A stretch of DNA of 63,221 nt, the filler included, from Sphacelaria rigidula (taxonomy: Eukaryota), in NCBI GenBank assembly GCA_964200075.2. It is 9 parts of 9 records of this genome, joined end to end, with 100 filler letters (N's around TTAATTAATTAA, not from the genome) between each part and the next. Parts side by side here need not be neighbours in the genome. Positions count along the whole stretch, not along the records: positions 1 to 6,936 come from CAXNAA020017328.1; 8 more parts are not named here. One strand, written 5' to 3'. The notes beneath the pieces were generated by a model that was given only the letters and a program-made list of their open reading frames with translations, made no database searches and had not been told where the DNA came from. Made by a program: the position numbers and the translations under genes. This document shows, one piece after another, positions 1 to 60,755 of this stretch; the stretch's first letter is position 1, and each line of letters opens with the position of its first letter.

Positions 1-37
<37 letters not shown>

Positions 38-72
38 TAGTAATAATAGTAATAATAATAATAGTAATAATA
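1..72. repeat. (AAT)n microsatellite at scaffold start
   Basis: Direct: ataataataat... with a few AGT/GAT interruptions. Confidence 0.95.
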
Positions 73-102
73 ATGTACTGTTTCAATGTGAAACGATAGA
101 TG

Positions 103-204
103 TTGATTGATGTATTGATTATTGCACTTGAACTGACCCCCCAGGTGTCCAGCCGTGGTCTCATGATAGACGTACGTACCCAAGAAAAACGAAAATGAAA
201 CACG
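103..204 (-). mobile_element. Short retroposon 3' end with (AATC)n tail (SINE/LINE-tail family); other copies at 3920-4240, 5925-6042, 14648-14750 (-), 45955-46058 and a degenerate copy at 32608-32710 (-)
   Basis: Shared core gtacgtctatcat..gaccacggctgga....ggggggtcagttaaagtgcgac followed by aatcaatcaatc in four to five different scaffolds. Confidence 0.75.
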
Positions 205-355
205 ATCTGAGAAAAAAAGAAGGAATAGAAGAAAAAAAAAGAGGGATGTACAACTCGACATTATTGGTTTCACTTGAAAAAAAAAGTAAAGTTCGATGTA
301 AAACGAAACATGTGCACGATACGACATTCGTTCCATTTTGAAGAAGAAATCACAC

Positions 356-3300
356 CTTAGACGACATATGGTCAACACTTGCAACGGGCCTATACTTTAT
401 GCGGTACATTTGTGGTATACTGCAACTATTGACGATATACCATCCAAGGCGTGAAAGAAATAGAGAAACGCCGGAACTTGCGACGGCACGACCGGAAGAC
501 GGAACGGGACGCCAACCTCTCACGAACACGACGGACGCCACGGACGGGATATCCAGTCGTCTCCACGATGGACGGGCGCTTTGGGCGGCACGGATCGGGT
601 CGGGGACGGCCACTTGCAGAAACGAGGGACGGGACGGAATATCTCGTCCCGTCTCGTCTGTCATCCCGCGAGATTCCGTCCCGCGGCAAGCCCTGCAAGG
701 AGCAGTGTGGCACACCCCCTTAACCAAAACGCGCCACGCTTGCTTGCATGCAGTCTCGTCCTATCCCGTCCCATCCCGTCCCGTCTGTCATCCCGTGAGC
801 TTTTTGTCCCGTGACAAGCTCTGACCTTCGAAAATCAGGTGCCAAACACCACCGGCCAAAGAACGCGCACCGCCCACTTACCAAAGCCCCCCCGCCACCC
901 GGCCTCCTCCGCTTGCTTTGCCTCCCTCTATCCTCCCCCTGTCCGCCCTCTACCGCCCCACTGCTATCACCGAAGTCACGCTTGGCCTGGACGCCTCTGC
1001 CTCCTTCTCTCTCCTGCTTCGTTACCCCCCGTGTTGTGGTGCGCTGTAGATTCTCCTTGTTGTCGCACGAGGTTTGTTGGCGTTGGCGTTGATGTTGGAG
1101 ATGGTGAGCATGGTCTGCCTCTCCGTCGCCATCGACCACCCCGCCGACCCCAGCACCACCATCTGTATGCCCGCAAGCAGGATCACCAACAACAAGCGTG
1201 ATATCGCGGTGCGATGACTGCTGCGCCGCTTGTGGCGGTGCGGCACCAGTGCTGTCGTTGCTACCGCCGCCGCTGCTGCCGCTACTGTAATTTACAGACG
1301 TCAAATGACTGGCCGAGGGTGTTTGGAACCACAACGCTTCGGCCGCCAGCGTCTCCTCTGAAGGCGGTACTTGCTCAACATATCTGTCCAGATCTCCGAT
1401 CGTCTGTCGATTTGGCATGGAGGGGGGGGGGGGAGAGGGGGGATGTCGGAAGTGGTTCGCAGGAGCCGAGCTGAAAATTATCCACACCCTGGAGATATTA
1501 TATGGTCAAAAGATGCAATAGATTCGTCGCTGTACTTGAATGCTTTTTGGATGAACAGTTGCGGAGGGTTCCTGCTCCGCCTCCCGCTTGTCATCCCAGA
1601 GATTGAAACAAGCTTCCCGGCAATAGAGAATTTCGGAAAACTTTTTTTTTGTCATTTCAGATTGCAAATATCTCAGCATCAAGGGTAACGAAAAATTATT
1701 TCCCGCTTCGTCAAATGTGGTATCCCCTTCACTTCCTTTCGATGAGTTTTTTTTACTCTTCACTCTGAAATGACAAAAATGCGTTTTCCGAAACTCTCTA
1801 TTGGCCCCCTGTTCTCTGTTCTCAGCAGCCGCGCATATCTCAGCTTTTCGCTTCTTCGTAATCCCACAATTTCAGGAGACGATAATTCGAAGGGTGTGTT
1901 CAGCAGGGTATCCCATCATATTCCGCTGTTGTGAAAAATCGTTCCGTCGGAAGAGAAGGTACGAAGGGCGGTTATACACCCTGCTTCATTTTACCCCTTT
2001 AATACTATACCCACTCGTTTATCCTCCGAATGGAAGACAGGAGGAAAGGGGGGGAATGTGCGGAGTTATACGGGCATAAATATATACATACATCGACAAA
2101 CGTGCACACACACTTCGTGTGCCTGCTTCCGTATCCTGTACATGAAAGGAAAAGACAAAAAAAAAAAAGTGCTCATCTATACGGGAAGAGCAAAAAAAAA
2201 CATGAAACGTATTGAAGCTACTTATTTATCCTGTACGTGGAAGATAAAACTAGAAAAGCATGAACTACAATAAAAAAAAGTGGCTACCTTTATGGGTAAA
2301 GAAGGAAAACACGTATACCTACTGTTGTTGTAAGAGATTGTCTTCGAAAACGAGGTTGGACATTCAGAGGAGGTTCAACTCCATAAAGTGTTTTCCCTGA
2401 CCTGAAAGCCATCACAAATGACTTTCATATAGACGACCTCATGCCCCCAAACCTCCCTGAAACTATTTGAGGGTGTTGTGTCTCCCGCTCCCCGAAGTGT
2501 ATTTGCGAAGGCACCTTTTTGTCTAGATATCGGGGTGATACAAGGGACGGTTTTAGCCCGAAAATGTTTTTGAAGACAGCGTACGAATATGCGACTTGTT
2601 TTCATGTGGTTCCCAGACATGAGACTGCTTGATTGGCGGGTTGATTTTCAGGGCTATACACGTGACACGTTTACGTTACCTTACGTTCATCACGTGAAAA
2701 AAAAAAAAAAAAACGTTAACGTTACATTTGAAAATTTGGCGTTACGTTCATCACGTAAAAAAATGAATGTTCACGTTACGTGACGTGTGTCACGTAAAAA
2801 AAATAAAAGTTACGTTAACGTTACATTTAAAAAGTGAACGTTACGTTTTCGTTACGTTCATCACGTGAAAAAAAATTAACGTGAACGTAACGTGAACGTA
2901 ACGTGAACGTAACGTGTAACGCTATGGCACGTGTAACGTGAATAGCCCTGTTGAGTTTCGCCCGTCAACACCAACAGATCCCGTACGGATTTCCCCGCAG
3001 CCACAACATACCCATATATACCCAGGGTACAATACACGACGACTTCCCAATACAAAAAAGTAGAACAAAAAGGCAGCAGTGAAGAGCGACTTCGTCGTGG
3101 GTAGAGAGAATCTACGGTAGGGATGCACTTGTCAGTCCAAAATTTGTCTGAGGCTGAACGCTATGGCCCAGAAGTCAATCGCCGAGAGGCTCTTAAAATG
3201 CAGAGCCCCAGGAACAAATTGTGCATCTCTATCGTGAAACAACTCGGGACACGAATTCGATTTCACTATCGGCGAGGGAAAGGGACCGCGGAACCCCTGT

Positions 3301-4381
3301 CGCGATAACAACTAAGGCAAGCACCGTAGAAGGAAGGTAGAAGTAGTAAAAACAGGCGTGACATCCGGGCGGGAATTTAGCCCGGTAGCCGCCGAAGAAA
3401 AAAACATAAAATAAAAACTGCTGTGTTTGGCCTCCCTCCTGTGTGACCCCGGTTGATACACCCACATATACCGAGAGGTGTAGACTGGCGCCCGGAATAG
3501 ATGGGATGACAGTGCAAGAACAAAGTAGGGAAGCAAACAAAGCAACCAGAGATAGCTGTTCATTGTGTTCGAACAGGCAGGCGTTCATGCTTGGAAGGTC
3601 CCCGTCAGAGACAGGCTACCGCTCAAGACGACACATTTCACGATGCAAAGCATGTCCCGAGCCTTAACCGGATTATTTTCGACAGCAAATGCTATCAATA
3701 TCCATTTCAAGATGCAAAGCACGTCCCGAGTCTCAACCGAACTCTTTAATACAGCAAATGCGATCAATTTTGCACACGGCTTTGCCACGGAAGTTGCAGG
3801 CGCTTGTTGAGTGACGCTCGCTGTGCTTTGCTTTTGTTGACATTTTTATTTCTGATGTTTTCACGTCTTATTAGTCTACAATGTCGTTCTGTTCGACTTG
3901 TTTTCTGTTACTCCTTTTTCAGTCTTGTTTTGTCTTGGGTACGTCTATCATACGACCACGACTGGACCCCTGGGGGGGTCAGTTAACCTTTTTGGAACCC
4001 CTTGACGATTTTTGTTTTTGGGAATCGGTATCGTTTTCATTCATTTTTCAAGTTAAAATGATGCCGATTCACGACAACAAGAATCGTCAAGGGGTTCCAA
4101 AAGGGTTAACCCTTATAAGCCCGCGGACGTAGTCGATCTGGACCATGCATACTTTTATCAAGTGAAATGATTGCCGATTCAGCACATGACCTACTGTCGC
4201 TGTCCAAGGGTTAAAGTGCGACAATCAATCAGTCAATCAACTCGCTCACGTTCGGAGCGTCGAACTCCCAGTCTATCTCCTCAAAAGCCGATACTCCGTC
4301 ATGCTCCAATGCTTTTCCCGGCGCGTTAATGCTGCCCCGTGCTCCTCTCGCGCTTGGCCGCCTTCCGCCGCGCTTCATCAT
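356..4381 (-). CDS. Partial spliced gene, protein with TPX2-like Aurora-kinase-binding N-terminal motif and KEN box (3' end beyond scaffold)
   Basis: Three phase-compatible GT-AG exons: 4381-4250 (MMKRGG...EEIDWEFDAPN|gtgagc), 1403-826 (cag|TIGDLDRYVEQVPPSEETLAAEALWFQTPS...DNKENL...KRRR...APDFR|gtcag) and 419-356 (cag|SIPQMYRIKYRPVASVDHMSSK|gtgtg). The spliced N-terminus resembles the plant TPX2/TPXL motif (YEFxAP...AELWF) as recalled from memory; no search was run. Confidence 0.65.
2649..2950. mobile_element. hAT-like MITE with ACGTT/AACGT subterminal repeats
   Basis: TIR CAGGGCTATACACGTGACACGT ... ACGTGTAACGTGAATAGCCCTG; 8-bp TSD ttgatttt/ttgagttt (7/8 match). Confidence 0.85.
3240..3530 (+). 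mobile_element. Diverged body of the tRNA-derived SINE family (tRNA head not recognisable)
   Basis: Aligns by eye to the reverse complement of 4500-4720 (gcaagcacc..agaagg, cccacatat.ccga.aggtgtagac). Confidence 0.6.
3987..4105. mobile_element. piggyBac-like MITE A (TTAA target site)
   Basis: TTAA at 3983-3986 and 4106-4109; ~24-bp TIR cctttttggaaccccttgacgatt / aatcgtcaaggggttccaaaaggg. Confidence 0.85.
4110..4210 (+). mobile_element. piggyBac-like MITE B (~100 bp); other copies at 11819-11918, 24489-24590 (-) and 41450-41547
   Basis: CCC...GGG termini flanked by TTAA on both sides (TTAA/TTGA at 11819); conserved interior gtagtc.atct.ga.ca...tgccgattca.ca..tgacctact. Confidence 0.85.
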
Positions 4382-4479
4382 GACTATACTAGTGTACGCA
4401 TACATCGAAGTAGGGAGGGGAACAGCACGGCAGTAGACAATTTTTCGTGAAATTGAGAGTCTGCTTTATAGCGTGGATT

Positions 4480-4846
4480 GAGTGTGCGTGTGCGTGTGTT
4501 GTCGCCCCATCTTTTCTGGAAGCTGGTCTACACCTTTCGGAATATGTGGGCGCACCAGCCGGGGCCAAACAGGGGAAAAGCAACACAGGAGTTTTATATA
4601 TCTTGTTGGTTTTAGTACTCCAGCTTCCTTCTGTGGTGCTTGCTTTTCATATTTTTTATCGCGAGGAGTTCAGTAGTACATTTCCCTCGTCGACCGCAAA
4701 GTCGAATTTTGTGTACCCACGACACAGTCACTCTCCACTGCTGGGCATACTGTGAAAAAAAATCCCAGATCTCTCCAAGATTCGAACCCACAACCCAACT
4801 GTCAGGAGGTTTTACGGTAACCAACTGAGCTGTCGGAGCGACCGGC
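4480..4846 (-). mobile_element. tRNA-derived SINE with CA-rich tail
   Basis: Minus-strand head GCCGGTCGCTCCGACAGCTCAGTTGG (A box) ... GGTTCGAATC (B box), followed by a ~270-bp body and a (CA/CG)n tail. A homologous copy lies at 33068-33586. Confidence 0.8.
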
Positions 4847-5191
4847 GTAGAGTGAGATTTATCATTAACTCTAACTTGTCCAATTTTTCTTTTCGTACGT
4901 GCTTTTCTTTGACTGTAACACTGACTGTCGTCTGCTTCCAGCTGCACGTCGATATCCTATTCAATTTTATCAGAGGCTTTGGTCGCAAGCTACTGAAGAA
5001 AGGGCATCGAGCCTCGTACAAGACCCAGGGGGGCATTTCGGAACTGAAACTATTTTATTCATGAATTGACCGTTTCTGACTCTCAATCGTATCCTAGACT
5101 CTCAATCTCACCAAGACGTTGTTACTTGTTGTGCAATTATTTGATTTATGGATTGCCGCAGTTGCAGGGGTGTTGAAATAACCAATTCGTT

Positions 5192-5661
5192 CAAGGTTGT
5201 GTTTTGTAGGGTACGGGCATGTTTTGTAGGGTATGGGGTTCCTCACAGAACTTACAGAAATATCGGGTAAAGGTATGAAAGTCTTACAGAACTTACAGAA
5301 CTTGTCGGGTACGGTACGGCAGGCTACCGGCAATCGGGTATTCCTTTAAGGGAATGCGCGAGCTCCGGGTACGAGCATACATCACGTACAGAACTCACAG
5401 AACTGTCGGGCAGGGTATGGAGGCTGTACAGAAAACCGTACCCGCAACCGGGTATCTTATCAAGAGCATACCCGTGCCCCCGGTAAAGGTACGGGAGGCT
5501 TACAGAAGGCTTACAGAACTCACAGAACTATCGGGTAAGGATATGAAAGTTTTACAGGCTCTACAGAACTGTCGGGTACCGGTATGAAAAATTCGGGTAC
5601 GGTAAATACCCGGGAAAATACCCCGGGTATACAAAAACGTACCCTACAGAACACAACCTGG
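5192..5661. mobile_element. hAT-like MITE with ACAGAACT/CGGGTA internal repeats
   Basis: 24-bp TIR caaggttgtgttttgtagggtacg / cgtaccctacagaacacaacctgg; 8-bp TSD aattcgtt/aattcatt. Confidence 0.85.
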
Positions 5662-6936
5662 AATTCATTATTGTCCGTCGTTGAATGGCCTATTTCATGG
5701 ATCCAATCAGCACTACTGGAGAACAGCTGCAGCAGCGTGCTGGATGTTCTTGGACCACCCAAAATCACATACGTACGTGAAGATATATTAGACCGCTGCT
5801 AAGGAGATATTTTGTAAGACAATCTTCACTCTTCGCTACTTGACGTTTTGAGCGACAAAAAAACGATGTGTCTGGAAACACAAAACGCGTAGAATTTTGT
5901 AATCTGCTGGGAATATTCTTCAGCGCGTGTTTCAGTTTTGTTTTGTCTTGGGTACGTCTATCATGTGACCACGGCTGGATCATGACTCCTGGGGGGTGAG
6001 CTAAAGTGCGACAATCGATCAAAAATCCAATCAATCAATCAAATGGGAATCTAGTCTTCTGCTCTTCCCCGAGCTAGATTCAACATCTACAACTCGGATG
6101 ACCGAGGCCCGGCGATGACTTATAGCGTAGAGCCGGCCGATTGCAACGGGAACGCATCTACGTGCACCCGAATGTGAAGCGTTGAAGCCACACATGACAT
6201 CTTCTCAGATGAAGAATGAGATAAAGATGAAGATGATTTTTACCTAGTTAGGATTAATGTGCGGAAATAAAAACAATAAAAATAAATAAAAGTGCGGGGT
6301 GTCTGCTGGATATATAGTCTTTTCCCAGCGGCCCTGTGGGCACCGCTGGAGTTCGGTGTTAGTCGGGTGTGCATGCGAAGTTTTTGTGTAGACTTGATCG
6401 GTTTCCGAGAAAAAAAGAACGGTCTTGGAGAAATTTGCAAGTTTGACCGAGAGAAAACTGCGGCCACCGGAAAAATGCGCAGATGTGCTGGAACCGTCTC
6501 AACGGGTACAGCAAGGCACTCCCAGGGGTCAAAATCCGGCTGGCTCTCGTGTAGGGCGTAACACGACGTAGGAGGTCTAAAAAGGCAGTTTCCCAGATTA
6601 TTACAAAAAAATGTTTGCCATAAGAAACGGTCTTCGTGGTGTCCGAAATGAAAATTATTCAAGAAAGTAAAAGCATGTCCTTCATGCCAATCCTCACGAC
6701 GGTTTGTCATCACTCTCTTGTACGTGGACCTGCGGTGAGCAGCACAACAAGTACAGCCGGTTTCAACGCCTTCCCTGTGCGATGGACGGTGAGACCGACG
6801 AACCCAGCCAAGCTGGGATATTGCCTGGCTTTTCTATTTTTCTGGGCGGGGGGGGGGGGGGGGGGGCCCTCGTTCGCTGCTTTCCTGGGGGTTTTGGCCC
6901 TTGTTCACCCACCCCGTTCGGGGCGGGGCATCGTTC

Positions 6937-28144: not shown

Positions 28145-28369
28145 TTCGTGCTTCACACGGCAAAAAAACGGCCCATTTTGTGTCTATCCGGGGCAAAGGT
28201 GGGCGCCCGTTTTTATACCGATCCGGCATAAATTCGGATTTTATGCCGGTTTCGGGCGTACAAAGGGAAAGCGGCATAAAATCCATAATTTTCGTGTACC
28301 CTGGAAAAAAACGGCATGAAATTGATTTGGCATAAAATAAATGGCATAAAATCGGGCCCACTACTGTAC

Positions 28370-30229
28370 CTGCTTTTGATACCACCATCGGAAGAAGCGC
28401 GATCGCTGCAATTGTTGCCGGCCGCGGGTCCCCCCTCGTCTCTTGCTCCGTTTTGCCGCGGGGGCATGTCTGTTCGAACCCGTTTTGTGACGGACGAATC
28501 ATGGTCTCCAGCTCTATGGTGGGAAACACAGTTCCAACTGGTGACATCTCCGCACTTCACGGCGGCGTCGATCTGTTGTGGATTGTCTCGCTTGGGTACT
28601 CGAGGACGCTCGTTGTGTGCATTTCGGTCCAGTTCACGCCACTGCGAGGCGTATATTGATTGATTGTTGTTGCCTCGACTTCTTGGCATAGCTTTCGTCC
28701 AGCTCGCAGTGTCCACGTGGTGCACCGCCTGCACATGGGGAGCCGAATGGTACGAAGCTACTCTTGGGGAAATTGCATGTGCGTCGGTGATGCCAAGTAC
28801 GACACCGTGCTCAGCATCCGCAAGTTCATGGCGAGTATCCCCACGGCAAGATGACCCACCATCAACGAAAAGTGACTTTGGGGGACTTTCACCGCCTCCC
28901 CCGTCCCCGGGAGCATTTCTGACCCCAGACACTACGCTATTGTTTGTATCGGAAGAACTCCCCGGAGTCAATCGTTGCGAGGTGGTGGCCGTGAGGGTGG
29001 AAGTATTTATCGGCTTATGTGCGATGCAGAAACCAGCGGATTGTCGATCGGATGTGTTCTTGACCTTCTCCCGCCGCCGCCGACACCCAGGGTACTTGCA
29101 TGCGGAGTTGTTCAAGTGGACCATTCCTGCATCTTTGTGCTCGGAGCAATACTTGGCGCGCTCGCCTTCGCGCCGGAATTGTGGACGCCGGGTGCACCCC
29201 GGTCGGTCGCAGATGCCGTTCTTCACGTCCACCATGGATGGTTTTTTGTGGGAAGCGCAAAATTCGGCTTTCCCTCCGGGATCCCCAAAGGTCGGGCGTG
29301 TCAAGCAACCGCTGGGGTGGATGCATCGGCGCGAGTTGACGTTAATCATATCTCCCTTTTTGTGAGACCAGCAGTACAAGGCGTGCCCACCATCAAATCC
29401 AAAGTTTCGATGCAATCTGCGGCGTCAGGTCAATATTGGGAAGCGATATGTTTTAGCGTGGCACGCGCATGTCGTTGTGGTCTGAACAGATATGTCAGAG
29501 TATATGAGCTCAAACCCTGCGTGCACGTGACACACATCCATCTTTATTCACGCTTCAGCGACCGATTTCCATGCGACCGACGCCTTGTCGAGGCTGTGCA
29601 ACCGTTTACGGCTAATGCACCGCCTTCTTAACAGCCTGTGGGGTTCCGACGTGAAGCTCGGGTATATGCTGCACCTCAATTTTGTAAAACTACCAGTCTT
29701 TCCTGTTTTTGCCCAGCACAATCGAGGAAGAACAGAACAAGCTCATTATTAGCGAACGGCATGCATGGCATCACCTGCAGGACGCATGAAGACACAGCAT
29801 ACTCTTCACATCCACCATCCCGGGCTCCTTGTGGGTCGCGCAGAACGTAGCACGGCGGCTGCCCTCGTTCCCGAAGGTTGGCTGCGTCATACACCCTGGG
29901 TATGCGCAAAGAGGGGCACGGGTAGAGACATCTATCATCCCTTCTTTCCTGTGAAGCGTGCAGGCGATTGCACGTCTCCCGACGGTTGGACCACTCCGCT
30001 TGCCCACTGTTGACCTGTAACCGCATGTTGGGCGCCGGCTACAGCCGGGCTGAAAGCACTTGTCATCGCGCTGCATCTTGTAGAAGAAGTGTTGATGTCT
30101 GTTGTGATCAAGAGTAGTAGTATCTCGCATATCCCAGGACGACAAGCCAGCGCGGTTGCTGTCGCCAGTGGGTGCTGGCGTAGGTGTTTCCATTGGATAT
30201 ACTGTTGGCATCAGAAGAGCGACTGGCAT
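28370..30229 (-). CDS. EsV-1-7 cysteine-rich repeat protein (about 6 repeats), spliced, likely partial
   Basis: Exon 30229 (start uncertain; possibly MQRDDKC)-29775 and exon 29416-28370 are joined by a phase-2 intron (AG|gtga...ctgacgccgcag|A), restoring CLHASCR-LHRNFG. Repeats of type C-x3-4-GC-x3-P-x-FG...FC-x2-HK-x2-GMVDV. Likely donor gcag|gtacag at 28370; unspliced, the ORF would run to 28213. Confidence 0.9.
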
Positions 30230-30922
30230 CCGCGCCAGAATTCGACGATGTATTTATTTGTGTGCCAGTGTCTAGTTGAAGGGACGCAGTGATGTCCACG
30301 AAGCGACGTTCGATGTACCCAGTACGCAGGAGTAGAGTCGTTATTGCTGAGGCAGCGATTCTAACGCTGCAACAGGAAGAACAGCAGCCAGCAATACGAC
30401 ATGCGACTCGCAGTCGTGCACTCCCCACTCGGAGAGACTACACCGCAACCAGTTTTTGCATGCATCTACGGGACGGGATGGGAGGGGGGGGTTGAGGAAG
30501 TATCTCTCGGCTTAGGCGAAAACCTCCAGGAATTGGTGAAGCAGGTCTGCAAAATGTGCGCTACATTCTTGACGGATGACAAGGCTTATGGTAGATGAAT
30601 TACGAATTTATCGTGGTCTCCACAACCAACTCGAGGCCTCCACCACGATCTCACAGTCTCCACGATATCGATCGTATTTAATACGTGAGGGAGAGGGAAG
30701 GAACTGGCGCAACTACAGTAATTTCACAACTGTACTACTGCCGACGTCCGCTGGTGGCAGCCACCCAGGTGGATGGGTACATCGGCGGGTGCTAGTAGTG
30801 GCTATGACTCCAGGGATGACCCATTCTGATGTACATGTATACTTGTATATATGGAGAGAGAGGGATTATATTTTGACTCAATATATTACATATTAATGGT
30901 GATGACTGCGCAGACCAGAGCA

Positions 30923-33120: not shown

Positions 33121-33586
33121 GCGTGTGTGTGCGTGTGCGTGCGTGTGTGTTGTTCGTGTGTGTTCTCGTCCTATCTATTCTGGACGCCGGTCTCCACCTG
33201 TCGGTATAATTAAACACCTCCGGAGGGGTGCGCGGCGCTCCGAGGATATTTTTTGGTTTCCTCCAGAGGGATTCAACGCCTCCGGAGGCTTATTTTTGCC
33301 TCTGGAGGGCCGCGCATCCCCGAAATTCCTCCGGAGGGGTGCGCGACCCCCCGGGTCGGTAGAGTTTGATTTCCTCCAGAGGGATTGAAGGCCTCCGGAC
33401 GATTTGTTTTTCCCCCGGAGTGCCGCGCATTCCTCCGGAGGCATTTTGGGGTATAGCCAAATGGCCGCGTTTGTCTCCACTGTTGGGCATTGTGTGAGAA
33501 ACTCCCAGATCGCTCCGAGATTCGAACCAACCACCCAACCGTCAGAAGGCTTCGAGTTTATCAACTGAGCCACCGGGGCGACCGGC
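33068..33586 (-). mobile_element. tRNA-derived SINE with (CA)n tail, interrupted by a CTCCGGAGG-repeat insert (~33213-33470)
   Basis: Head GCCGGTCGCCCCGGTGGCTCAGTTGA...GGTTCGAATC; the tail region matches 4500-4545; (GT)n at 33068-33150. Confidence 0.8.
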
Positions 33587-39300: not shown

Positions 39301-42116
39301 TTCCAACTATTTATTCATTGCGCTAGAACCTTGTCAACTTTCGTAGTTGGGCGTTTTTTGGGTTATTCGCGCATGATAGTCTTCAGCACTTGAAAGTGCT
39401 GGACTCGGTAGACATTGGAAAAACAGGTCGTGCTCAGGAAACAATTCCCAAGTTGGGGTTGTCGGGGTGATAAGAAGTGAAGATCTCGTTCACCAGGGGT
39501 GTTTTTGACCGTCACTGGGATGAAAAGAACAGTTTTCCAGCTCTATCGCAATGAACAGTTGGTAAGTAATATATATATATATATATATATTCATATTTGT
39601 CGAGAACTTTTGGGATTGGTTCGATCAAGAAAAAATCGCCGAGACTCAGAACCTGGAACTACGCAGTCGCGACTCCAGAGAACCGGTCAGCTCGTAACTC
39701 GATCAATATTGATTGCAGAATTGTTTTTTTTTCTGGATTGTGAAGCGGATGTTACCATCTTCTGATCCCCAAAATATTGGCGTCAAGCGTTCACTGTGAT
39801 GAGCGGTGGCACGTGAAAAAACTCATAAAAAGAGCCCATTACGAAAAAAGATAAAAAAAAAACAACGCGTAATACAGATGGTGACTACTGTATTGTGTCT
39901 AGATTAGTTTGCCTGAGAGTATGGTACAGGCTTTTGGTGGTACTTTGCAAGGCACCGTAATTTGCATGGCACAGTACCGGTGATCCACGGTTCGGTACGG
40001 CGCTGTACAGATCTCACGGTTCTCGTGGAGACGACCTTGTCATTTCGAGGTACAGGGGATGGCACACCGAGAGTTTCGGAAACTGTTTTCTCGCACCTCA
40101 GGATCAGGATGGAATGGATTAAAAGCCGGTAACGGCACAAAGTTCATCCCCAAGAAAATTTTACGATAGACTTTTCAGGATCGAAGCTCTTCGTCCTGAA
40201 GCCTGAAGCGCCCCTTCAGAACTCGGGATGGAACACAGGAATCACTCCCACCCCCGTCACCACTGTCACAGCCAGTTTGCCATCAATATACCCTCCAACA
40301 AGCAGAGTGGAACATCCACCACAACTGTCATCCTCATCACCATAGACCAGCCACGAAGTAGCAATATCTCGCGTCGCAGACAGGGGACCTCCCTGTCGCC
40401 GCAATGGTACCAGCATTCGCTTGGTTGTATTGCGTGATATATAAATGCTCGGTGCGCACGAGACGTTACCTTGGGTGGTACAGCTCCTCACAAGACGTTG
40501 CCTCGGGTACACCACCTCAAAATCTCGGCCAATTTGATCATTTGATCATTTGTCCAAATTTGTTGATGAATCAGGATTAGTCTTGTGGAGAGACGACGAA
40601 AGTGGATACATCACCACCAATTTCAGCCCAACCGGAGGTACAGGTAACCGCGCATGTTAGAGCTGTCCGTGCTAAGCCGAGACACCTCAAAAATCAATCC
40701 CGACCGAAAGGCAAGGTCCCCACAGCCTATTAAGAGTATGAAGACAACCCCCCCCCCCTCCCCAAAACGCTGCTCTGTCTCGAAAGGGATGCGTTGTCAG
40801 TGGTCAAACGACTAAGGCCAACAATAAATGAGTATCTCTCCCCCCCCCAAGAAAAAAAAACGCGGTTTAGGGCCGAACAGCACCGCGGGAAACAAGGGTC
40901 TCGCAGAATACCCATCAAGTCTGACAATGGGGGTAGGTATACCCAGCATAAACCACAAAGTTTATCTTGTAAATCGTTCTTTCGTATACTGTCTCATACT
41001 TTGTCCGAAGTGTACCTCTACTTGACCAATATCGACCTTCCACAGCCGCCGTCCGACCCACCACACGGCACAAAATTGGATGGCCGAAGTACACCTCCAA
41101 CGCTTCTTTTTACCTCTTTCTACGGCGTGGAGATTCGAGACCCTTGCGGAGTGATTGACACACCGCGCGACCGTTGGCATTCGGTACCGCAAGCTAGAAA
41201 ATATGGAGCACAACGCAAACGGCACAGCGACTTGAAAAATGACTGAATTTACAACGGCTGATCCCCTCCGTCGCTCAGTCATCATTTTGGCGCACAGCGC
41301 AACCGTGTCGAGAAGACTTGCCCTACAGGACGCTGGCAATCGGGCGAACGCTGCGAGGCGTGTTCACTACTTGGTCGATGAGCAAATCTCTCGGGAACGT
41401 CTTTCTTTAAATAACGCTACGAGCTGGGCCAGCCTAGAAACGGATTTAACCCCTACAACGCGAGGGTAGTCCATCTAGATCATTCAGACATTTTTCAAGT
41501 GAAATTGATGCCGATTCAACAGATGACCTACTCTCGCCGTCAAAGGGTTAAGCTCTCAAAGCAATACCTCATAAACATAGACGAGTTGGACCATGGTCCT
41601 CATATAGTATTGATCGTCCAATCAAGGGGTAGGTGACCATCTGCTCAAAAGTTTGTGCCAATATTTTCATATTTTCTCGTTGATTAAACCCCATGTCTCG
41701 TAATTCCTATACCTGACGGAGATGGCGTCCACACCAAAATCTATATGAAACCCCCGATCGATACATTCAGCGGGGGACGACGATTTTTGGTGTGGACATT
41801 CCCTGGAGTACGGGGCGACGATAGATACCCTCGCTTCCACCTGATTCGTTATTCATCTCGAGATATGGCGCACACAAGGTTCTATACTAAAATCAATTTA
41901 TTACAAGCAGAGGTACTAGATGGACTAAATCTGGATATCGCGTCTCAGTTTCAGAGAGTCATGCTATGAAACTTCGTGTGGAGAACCGATGGTGCATAAC
42001 AAAGCTAGATGAAACAGCCTTTTTTTTTTTTTTTTTCCCGTTTTTAGGGCAATTTTTTGGAGAAATTAAAACTTCTCTTGGGCCTTATCTCTACTTTTTT
42101 GTTCCATTTTTATATT

Positions 42117-56800: not shown

Positions 56801-58855
56801 TCAGCCGTGTGACTTGAAGCATTGTAGGCACCAGGAACCGCGGGGTGCGGAAGGGCTGGTTGTGTAAAAATCGGGGCGAAGCGTGAGCTGAACTGGGCCA
56901 GGGTCGTCGAAGAAACGCACGATGTACGTGTCGACCGCGAGGGCATCGACGGAGTGGATCTGATCTAGCCACCAGAGGTAATCGCTACCCTTATACCACA
57001 AGTAGGCACCTTTAGGGAGCAGTTGTTGTTTTGCGCGAATGTTTTCGTCCCATTGTTTGGTGGGTACGAGTTCGTAACCATCGGCTACAAAACGTAGTCC
57101 TTTGTCGCGGTGGACTTCGCGAGCTACGGCGCCGCGTCTCATGTTGCGATATCCCTTGTTATCAGCGAGCTGTTGCCGTGGGGATTGTGTCCAATAGAGA
57201 AGGATGGCACGACGGTGCAGTTGAAGGTCGGACTCGCATTCCCAAGACGCACGCCGAAGACCTTGCCAGTGTGTCTTGTACATGACAGCAATTTTGCCGC
57301 CAGGGCCTCGAGTGATTTGGTGGCCGGAAATGTGGGACACGGCCAAGCGGAGAGGTTGTTCAGTGACGTCATCGGTGGTAACGTGGTACGGTGGAGATTT
57401 TGTTGAGTAGCTGTTGAGCACGTGTTGGGTGAGACCTGCAGGCAGGTATTGAGGCATGTCCGTGGTGTCATGCAGGTTCGTGCAGGGCTTGCAACGATGC
57501 ACAGAGACGCGAGATTTAGCGTCGTGCCCCTGGAGGTCACGAGGTAATTCGAGATAGAGGAGTTTGTCGCCAACGGGCTTGCCGTCAGGAGATGTCGGCG
57601 AGGGTCCGACTACGAGAATCTTGGATGGACCCGTCCAATTGAGGGACAGTTTCGTGTTCAAGACTGTTGCCTGGGCAGTACGGTCAGCGCCTTGACGGAT
57701 GGTGGACAAACTGTTGTAGATCCAGACCCAATCGCCGATCTTCCAAGCAGGGCGCTTGTGCATCAGGTTGTAGAGGGCGGTATTGGATCTTTCAAGGCGT
57801 GAGACGTTGATAGCGTGTTCTTCGTGCACCAAGGTGAAAGCTTTGCGCTGACGAGCCCTGGCGAGGTCGTGGTAGGACATCTGATCCTGGTCCAGACCTT
57901 GGTGACCATCGAAGGTATGTCGTTCGAAAACGGTGATGGGCAGACGAGGGTAGCGTCCAAGATGCAGCTCGTTGGGCGAGAGGCCCGTAGCCGCGTTAAC
58001 TGAATTGTTGTAAGACAACATGACATGCGAGAGATGAAGGTCTCAATCATTTAATCGGTCGTTGACGACCATGGATAGCATTTGAGCCATTGTGTGGTTC
58101 ACACGTTCAGTCCCACCGTTACCGTTAGGGTGGTAAACGCTCGTGGCAATTTTGCGAATGCCGAGGAGCTTGTACAAAGCATCCGAGGTTTCGGAGCAAA
58201 GTTGTTGACCATTATCGGAGAGGAGCCGTTTCGGGCAGCCATAGTGCTTAATGTAGTCATGGACGAGTATGTCCGCCGTGCCGGCAGCAATGAAATCGCT
58301 AGCAGTAACAGCATACATAGCCGCGTGACGGCTGAAGCGGTCGGTGAAGAGTATGATGTAGGTATTACCACGGCCAGTTGGGGGTAAAGGGCCGAAGTAG
58401 TCGAACGATACGAAGTGATCAGGAGCGTTTGGAAGCTCCATGAAAATCACCGGCCATCGCACAGTCTGCCGAGAGGTTTTGCGAGCCTGACATTTGAAAC
58501 ATCAGCGGACCCAAAAACGCGTGGATGCTTCCATGCCAATCCACCAATAAAAATGTTCAAGGAGCGCTAACGTGCGCGTGACGCCTAAGTGGCAGGACAA
58601 ATCAGAGTGACAGCCTTTCATGACCCACGGACGCATCATGATAGGGACGTAGATGCGAATTGGGGCGTCATGACGCATATGTACCGAAGTGGCAGTTGTT
58701 ACTGCGGTAGCCGTGCCCAATTGGGAGCTGGACCGGCGAACAAGCAGATGAACGTCATCGTCAGTCGTGAAGACGGTACCTTTGCGTGCCAGGAGGCAGC
58801 GGGGGCGGGTAGAGTGCCTACGGGAGTCAGGATCTCAGCCGGAAAAGGGGTCAAT
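56801..58855 (-). mobile_element. Decayed Ty3/Gypsy retrotransposon integrase region
   Basis: HHCC finger (CHSDLSCHLG...WVR*CFKCQ); rve core (SFDYFGPLP, FTDRFSR, LSDNG, YHPNGNGGTERVN); WTGP (GPY/F module); chromodomain-like YKTHWQG...SWE. In-frame stops at 58502 and 58043. Confidence 0.95.
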
Positions 58856-58868
58856 TGTCATATGGAAA

Positions 58869-60755
58869 GTAGCTAATGCACTGGCGGGGGTCTCTCAGTA
58901 TGAGTGCCAGGAGATACCATGGTGCCAACCCACCAAGCTCCCACGTGGGCAACCTCACACAGACCAAGCTATCCTTCCTTGACTATCACAAAGTAGGTTC
59001 ATTCATGTTCAAACTCTTGATAAGGAACCCACGTGTTTGCTTAGCATCATGTTTCATCTACAAGCCTCTCTTACTCAGCATAGCCGGGGCGCAGCCATAG
59101 GAGCAGAGCGTAGCGATGGCCCAGGGTAGAGACCAAGGCAAGCCGGTAACTGATTAGATAGGGCGACGCGGCCTACCGCCGCGGCTGAACAACCCTCACT
59201 AATGACAGTAGCAGACGCGATAACAACGCGTCACGGAATCCAGGGTCTACGAGCAGACCCGCACAGTGTATATCTTGCAACGCCTCTGAGCTTCATCACA
59301 CTAGCCCATCCTAGACGAGTCCTTATGCAATTGAATTACATCACCTCGGCACAATATAATTGCGCCGAGCACTTTCATAATTCAACGAGAAAGGGCTCTT
59401 CTACACTACACTCGTACAAAAGCATGAAGCGAAGAAAAACTATTCTTTCTCCCACACCTCTAAGAGGCGAGCATCGCTGCGATCCGACACAGCATCAAAC
59501 GTTCAATCCACGAAAAGGAAAACGTTGTATCTACGTGACACTCACGCACCTATGTTGAACAAGACAACACACACGGAAGTCCATCTACAAAGTAGAGCAC
59601 TAAATGGTACGCACGCGTAGACTTCATTCACCAACGGAACAAGGACGGAATGCCAGACAATCCGGGAAAAGGGGAGGGAAAACGCAGTTGCGGCATAGCA
59701 TCGCGGCAACTGCTCTGGTTGAACGTAGATCCAAGTGAGCTCCACATCTTTGTTCGACTCCGTCCCGACACATCCGTCGCGTATAGCGAGAGTGGCATCC
59801 CGCCCATTTCCTTGGCAGCGCGTTTGAAGTGGCAAACCTGCCTTGAAAAAGGCGTGCAGCGTGGAGTACAATGCGATGGGGGGGACTACGCAGCAATAGG
59901 GAGATAAAAGTCGGGATGTAGCCGATGTTCAGGTTTGGTGTGCCCGAAGTGCAAATTCAAAACCTCTGCGGGGGTGGGTACTAGCCCATCCAAGACGACA
60001 CTCAGGGTTCGGAGCTAAAGGTCGTTGGGGAGAACTTGTCGTTCAGCGCGGCGGATCAACTATCACGTGATATGAGCGAAAACGTAGTACCAAGTAAAAA
60101 AAAGAACAATTCGTCAGAGCGCAATACCCAACTCAAAGTAATCGTCCGGCGAAAATACAGTCTACAACTAGGGTGGTATAAGTGGTCATTCCCGGTGGAA
60201 CACTGGACCACGCGCAACGGAACGACACAAGAGAACACAGTCGTGTCGCTAGCTGACCAGGCTGCGCTACGGGATAGGGGGAGAACAAATAACGAACACA
60301 TCCAGATGAGTTGTCGAAATGCAGTTATTCACCTCGACCTAAAACAGTCGTCGGGCATGAACACGGCCTACAACAAGGGCGGTATAATAAGCAGTACACG
60401 GTGTAACCAAGGACCCGTGCAACAAGACGATGTAAGGGAGACCGGTGCGGCGAGCGTTCTTGGCTGGCGGCAGGGGGTTGAGCAGTGACAACAACAAACA
60501 CATCCAGAAAACGAGTCATCAAAATTCCAAACATGCGGGAGGCTGGACTAAATCTACAGTCCTCGCGTCGCCTAAAGAAATCTCGAAGACAAGAAGAAAA
60601 AGAACACTAGATGCTCAGGGGACACGGACAGAGATGCGACAGCGACAAGAAATGTGACTACGGTTACTGGAAACGGAATAACCAAGAAGGTGAACTCAGC
60701 ACAAAGAAACACGGTACCAACACCTGTGGGGGGCTACAATGCAGCGAAAGGGGGG
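58869..60755. mobile_element. Second copy of the unclassified ~1.9-kb repeat, abutting and truncating the Gypsy pol
   Basis: Colinear with 25939-27847. Confidence 0.85.

Follow-up and report, generated by a model that had tools for sequence, protein, structure and literature searches.

The window analysed here is a 63,221-nucleotide (nt) stretch of eukaryotic DNA from the brown alga Sphacelaria rigidula (assembly GCA_964200075.2), joined from parts of nine records. Near its start, positions 4390-882 on the minus strand are the first two coding exons, 218 codons in all, of an expressed brown-algal gene. Exon A begins with a short untranslated stretch (4382-4390, by the contigs and the boundary context), followed by 44 codons (132 nt, 4250-4381, from an ATG at 4381) that end ...EEIDWEFDAPN in phase 0; exon B (882-1403) contributes 174 codons, with the remainder of a docking motif and an apparently disordered Gly/Ser/Gln-rich linker, and ends ...KRRRPGGGGAL. 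Between them is intron 1 (1404-4249, 2846 nt, GT..AG), full of dispersed and palindromic repeats, and past exon B is the GTAAGT donor of intron 2 (876-881), where the transcript exits the window. By analogy with the TPX2 proteins of other eukaryotes, we think it on balance probable that the spliced product is the N-terminus of a putative TPX2-family activator of Aurora kinases, either a canonical TPX2 or a TPXL-like protein.

Three RNA-type runs (X1, X2, and X3; three of the four runs of that type) and one DNA run (X5) were aligned to positions 100-5000. X1, X2, and X3 each yield a contig (of 2600, 2692, and 1645 nt, at depths of 44.9, 40.9, and 48.3 respectively) in which the pieces 4250-4390 and 881-1403 adjoin with no mismatches, whereas a contig of X5 spans 177-1671 unspliced and unbroken; the 2846-nt intron is therefore removed in RNA. 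The intron starts GTGAGC and ends ...CGACAG after a pyrimidine run. Exon B opens at 1403 with TIGDLDRYVEQ...EALWFQTPS, in a frame that reads TIGDLDRYVEQVPPSEETLAAEALWFQTPS, and splicing joins WEFDAPN to TIGDL...EALWFQT, in phase 0 at both junctions. With a spliced transcript in all three RNA-type runs, canonical GT..AG borders, and 218 open codons across the junction, this is a real coding gene. The original prediction had proposed both the in-phase splicing of the 132-nt exon through a 4250/1403 junction and a motif that exists only after splicing; the contigs bear out the first, and the second follows from the position of the two halves, one on each exon.

Some limits apply to these data. 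The typing of X1-X4 as RNA was a guess, no matching run being recorded as RNA (the four RNA-guessed runs contain 0.14 of the sampled words, the four DNA-like runs 0.37-0.90); X1-X3 are treated as RNA because intron 1 is missing from their contigs, and since they come from a single study they amount to one independent source. The evidence for the first junction is the adjoining of the contig pieces, the junction not being among the 15 joints listed (there are 150 further ones), and rare isoforms are beyond the reach of contig evidence.

At the 3′ side of exon B, the prediction had continued through an 826/419 junction, which the transcripts contradict. The X1-X3 contigs all depart from the genome at 881, where the donor is TTG/GTAAGT and exon B ends at 882 (the extra aligned base at 881 is a 1-nt ambiguity, a G common to the next exon). 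RNA depth is 0 across 428-755; in the bin 756-919 it is 10.7 in X1, equal to 44.9 x 39/164, that is, coverage of 881-919 alone; and in the bin 264-427 it is 2.6-5.2, far under the contig depth, where an exon at 356-419 would add about 17. By these depths, the stretch 356-875 is intron or other non-exonic sequence, including the segments 826-881 and 356-419 that had been taken as coding. The tail read from them ('GRCAFF...' and 'GRCAFFGRWCLAPDFRSIPQMYRIKYRPVASVD') was rejected as intron read-through plus an exon without transcript support, and 'GRCAFFGRWCLAPDF RSIPQMYRIKYRPVASVD', offered as a non-TPX2 body, was rejected as intron on the RNA depths and contig ends.

Beyond 881 on the 3′ side the contigs extend for a further 851, 1774, and 1886 nt, and beyond 4390 on the 5′ side for 130-162 nt, in both cases outside 100-5000; the 3′ part of the gene thus passes the window edge at position 1, leaving 218 codons visible. 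The window begins (positions 1-100) inside an (ATT)n microsatellite, and its gap blocks add up to 714 N, a sign of fragmented local assembly; the gene's missing 3′ part may be on the same scaffold, past position 1. At the 5′ end there is probably an intron in the untranslated region (UTR), with an acceptor ...CACTAG at ~4389-4390. The messenger RNA (mRNA) is at least ~2.7 kilobases long, by the contigs, with room for up to ~846 amino acids (aa), i.e., up to ~630 codons beyond the window. A protein of TPX2 size would fit, most full-length TPX2 rows in the part of a published alignment used here (PMC5080731) being 676-900 aa long; a long 3′ UTR fits the mRNA length equally well.

That alignment was made with MUSCLE from 25 full-length TPX2 sequences; part 1 of 4 of it (PMC5080731, supplementary file 3) served as the comparison set, and the statements on TPX2 sequences below are limited to this part. 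Its Aurora-site rows (plants, Physcomitrella, a chytrid, Guillardia, human, and Xenopus) share [Y/F]-x-[Y/F]-x-A-P, then aromatic-x-[D/N]-F (directly past A-P+1 in plants, one residue later in vertebrates), and then an acidic spacer and [D/E]-x-W-F; Arabidopsis TPX2 has ...YEFLAP-RWFDF...AELWFQS. The algal order is W38-E-F-D-A-P43, N-T-I46-G-D-L49, 16 E/P/S-rich residues, and A-E-A-L-W69-F70-Q-T, which fits this alignment as aromatic-x-F-x-A-P, hydrophobic-x-D-hydrophobic, and acidic...WFQ[S/T]. With its first residue at position 38, the motif is close to the N-terminus, like that of TPX2. A loose form of the bipartite Aurora motif, allowing conservative substitutions, matches residues 38-70, whereas the strict form from the alignment does not. 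By this comparison, W38-E-F40-D-A42-P43 (4253-4270, minus strand like all parts of this gene) is the counterpart of TPX2 Tyr8/Tyr10 with Ala-Pro, T-I46-G-D48-L49 (1389-1403) that of Phe16/Phe19, of the F-pocket, and E66-A-L-W69-F70-Q-T (1320-1340) that of Trp34/Phe35.

Beyond the motif, the linker has the KEN box and the KRRR patch that the original prediction named: the former is at residues 160-162 (1050-1058), the latter at residues 208-211 (903-914), where it resembles a nuclear localization signal and might function as one. KEN boxes have a role in protein degradation. The human TPX2 row also has a KEN after its motif (PMC5080731), so that the algal one, 3′ of the Aurora motif, is a shared feature, but not a universal one. 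Exon B modeled alone with AlphaFold2 gave a mean predicted local distance difference test score of 50.7, with one low-confidence helix (exon-B residues 99-133); the model suggests that exon B has no folded domain, consistent with disorder.

Among the closest known counterparts is land-plant TPX2 (Arabidopsis and relatives), which in the aligned rows has the same N-terminal x-E-F-x-A-P, acidic spacer, and A-E-(x)-L-W-F-Q-[S/T], and a Ser/Pro-rich stretch rather than a long helix after WF. The alga differs from these rows in having W for Y, T-I-G-D-L for [RK]-[WFY]-[FY]-D-F, and a spacer of 25 residues vs. ~19; land-plant TPX2 also has C-terminal TPX2 domains, while the corresponding algal region is outside the window. 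With human and Xenopus TPX2 residues 1-43 bound to Aurora-A (PDB 1OL5, cited in PMC12936226), it shares, as far as the portion of that source drawn on here goes, the order of contact residues and their proposed roles: two aromatics before A-P, hydrophobics at P+3 and P+6, then WF, with KEN downstream. The one-residue spacing in the alga's N-T-I-G-D-L is likewise that of the vertebrate rows. It differs from the vertebrate proteins in that phmmer detected no similarity, in its aliphatic residues at P+3 and P+6, and in that WF ends a predicted amphipathic stretch rather than starting it.

Two other kinds of Aurora activator are relevant, both described here from partial accounts. The TPXL proteins (C. 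elegans TPXL-1; Arabidopsis TPXL2 and TPXL3) also have an Aurora-docking N-terminus and may miss parts of the TPX2 body. Bora, likewise a disordered activator of Aurora-A, occupies the same pockets, and an FF pair takes the place of the WF of TPX2; unlike the algal protein it lacks an x-F-x-A-P core, and it crosses the N-lobe in the reverse chain direction.

In human TPX2, as described in the sections of PMC12936226 available to us, Tyr8 and Tyr10 fill the Y-pocket of Aurora-A and Phe19 the F-pocket, with Trp34 and Phe35 packed near the activation loop. On the analogy with residues 1-43 of that protein, W38 and F40 would occupy the Y-pocket on the kinase N-lobe and I46 and L49 the F-pocket, while W69 and F70 would pack by the activation loop and keep the kinase active. 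The KEN box could make the protein a substrate of the anaphase-promoting complex with Cdh1 (APC/C-Cdh1) at mitotic exit, and the KRRR patch could bind importin and bring about nuclear import.

Several observations weigh against a TPX2-family assignment. Within the motif, W stands in place of Y/F, and I and L in place of the pocket-filling aromatics; the spacer from P to W is 25 residues, against ~19-20 in the aligned TPX2 rows; the acidic residue is one position farther from WF; and the algal protein has no match to a strict, aromatics-only pattern derived from the published alignment. The translation start, placed at the first ATG of exon A, is a candidate, the 5′ exon lying outside 100-5000. 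Homology searches were equally unhelpful. Pfam returned no families at E<=10 for exons A and B scanned apart, although for PF09041 (Aurora-A_bind) this is a weak null, the model being reported as Euteleostomi-only and the motif being split over the two queries. There is no TPX2 domain in the two exons within the window, the rest of the gene being outside it. A phmmer search of the PDB found no match for either half, and an exhaustive phmmer search of exon B against 1.84 billion representatives found two, neither of them a distinct homologue: a 123-aa fragment that matches exon B at 100% identity, and a bacterial repeat protein matched via low-complexity sequence. Word-indexed searches of longer proteins gave 3042 candidates for exon B (none at E<=0.01), seven for exon A (none at E<=10), and five for exon-B residues 1-40 (no matches). 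A metagenome scan gave 595 pattern matches, none of which was confirmed, the ESM Atlas gave no usable match, and Rfam had no matches on 1-6500. Thus no orthologue came from these searches of protein collections; the blank results are no proof of novelty, because the query is short and disordered and brown algae are poorly represented in the collections.

The resemblance might then be a chance one, in an unrelated, mostly disordered nuclear protein whose WEFDAP...WF, KEN, and KRRR have no Aurora-related function. The blank profile and sequence searches and the unmatched strict pattern are what this would lead one to expect; the protein is also a low-complexity one, rich in Gly, Ser, and Arg, the type of sequence in which KEN and basic patches are often seen. 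By rough arithmetic, not a tool result, a minimal EF-x-AP...WF should turn up about once per proteome. A pattern for the whole motif was drawn up in loose form (W permitted at the first position, any hydrophobic residue at the pocket positions). Elsewhere in the window, over 126,438 six-frame residues, it has no matches, and in 200,000 shuffles of the 218-residue protein it never appeared, its first half alone appearing once; the expectation is 0.011 per 10^7 residues. These figures overstate its significance, because the pattern was composed after the sequence was seen and very many windows were scanned; with many thousands of windows read, some coincidental matches are to be expected, a further point against the assignment. 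As a counterweight, the match falls on two exons proven to be joined, lies close to the N-terminus, and has its elements in the correct order, with a KEN box and a basic patch following; five to six separate features occur together, and the ...LWFQ[S/T] is near-identical to that of the Arabidopsis TPX2 row. We consider coincidence unlikely, if still a serious competitor.

If the motif is what it appears to be, the question becomes what kind of protein it heads. The protein might be a TPXL-type adaptor, with the docking motif alone on a non-TPX2 body, as in C. elegans TPXL-1 and Arabidopsis TPXL2/3, which are without the kinesin-5 part. The motif evidence is the same for this as for TPX2 itself, and the family is modular, with motif and repeats found apart in worm, fly, and plant proteins, at least in the portions of the sources used (10.1101/431791; PMC5080731). 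However, the canonical full-length form is reported to be commoner (PMC5080731), and the only sequence offered as a non-TPX2 body was intron. The adaptor, which is the surviving form of the proposal that a new architecture had co-opted the motif, therefore seems rather improbable to us. The proposal itself rested on that downstream sequence and, with the tail shown by the transcripts to be intron, is left unsupported. More doubtful again is a stand-alone brown-algal Aurora-docking protein, with aliphatic pocket residues and a body without TPX2 microtubule-binding repeats.

A canonical TPX2, in which the off-window remainder would hold a central TPX2_importin domain (PF12214) and the C-terminal TPX2 microtubule-binding repeats with the Xklp2-targeting domain (PF06886), is favored over a TPXL-like protein because the TPX2 domains of Pfam have been reported from stramenopiles and because most eukaryotes are said to have a full-length TPX2 that includes an Aurora site, as the usual state (PMC5080731); taken singly, we regard it as a good possibility that falls short of being probable. 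The gene is in any case probably an ordinary member of the TPX2 family and not a new architecture. What was originally called a TPX2/TPXL-like Aurora activator thus holds up at the level of the motif, with its alignment match and KEN box, but is without support from profile or sequence searches.

Several repeats lie in and around this gene. Intron 1 contains, at 3982-4110, a palindromic element resembling a miniature inverted-repeat transposable element, whose 56-nt arms are 88% complementary and separated by 17 nt. Judging from its very high depth in the DNA run, the element is present in many copies; it has a relative at 41446-41551, and the contigs of X1, X2, X3, and X5 include forms skipping ~231-233 nt at 3977-4210. 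Also in intron 1 are a foldback element at 1621-1803 (29-nt arms, 86% complementary, and inner 19-nt arms), high-copy in all runs, and a 300-nt block of ACGT-rich short repeats (TAACGTGAACGTAACGTG three times, and relatives) at 2649-2950, which is flanked by 22-nt inverted repeats (2649-2670 and 2929-2950) and may be another foldback element. Upstream of exon A, a very high-copy element (depth ~1 million in X5) is found at 4690-4860 and again at 33474-33586, with one 79%-identical copy elsewhere in the window. By eye it is partly like a transfer RNA (tRNA) (…GCTCAGTTGG…GGTTCGAATC…), and it may be a tRNA-derived short interspersed nuclear element; neither ARAGORN nor Rfam called it.

Farther along the window, two long open reading frames (ORFs) at 28213-30253 (minus strand) have three and two EsV-1-7 cysteine-rich motifs (PF19114, E values of 9e-33 and 2e-25). 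Brown algae and their viruses are the typical carriers of this family, which has undergone expansion in brown algae; the developmental regulator IMMEDIATE UPRIGHT of Ectocarpus is one of its members. A retrotransposon pol remnant occupies 56801-58834 (minus strand), with an integrase at 58043-58834 (zinc-binding PF17921 and rve core PF00665) followed by a 413-aa ORF without a Pfam match. ARAGORN places a tRNA-Asn(GUU) at 59168-59259 (minus strand), which at 92 nt is unusually long and may be intron-bearing or repeat-derived.

Little has been written on Aurora-kinase activation outside animals and land plants. In the literature searched, for the most part as listings, no published description of a brown-algal TPX2 or of its Aurora-binding motif was found, and a diatom survey, in the part of it consulted, reports TPX2 only as fragments. 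The gain from the present case is incremental, since TPX2 is already held to be ancient and widespread (PMC5080731); it does show that such a motif can be invisible unless the splice is correct. Were the protein after all a stand-alone one, the docking module would have moved between proteins or arisen independently in the stramenopiles, which have centrioles and a multicellularity of their own kind. Should the motif prove genuine, the docking logic of Y-pocket, F-pocket, and WF would reach the stramenopiles with aliphatic substitutions, and the N-terminal peptide of ~80 residues, together with point mutants, would offer a handle on spindle assembly in brown algae.

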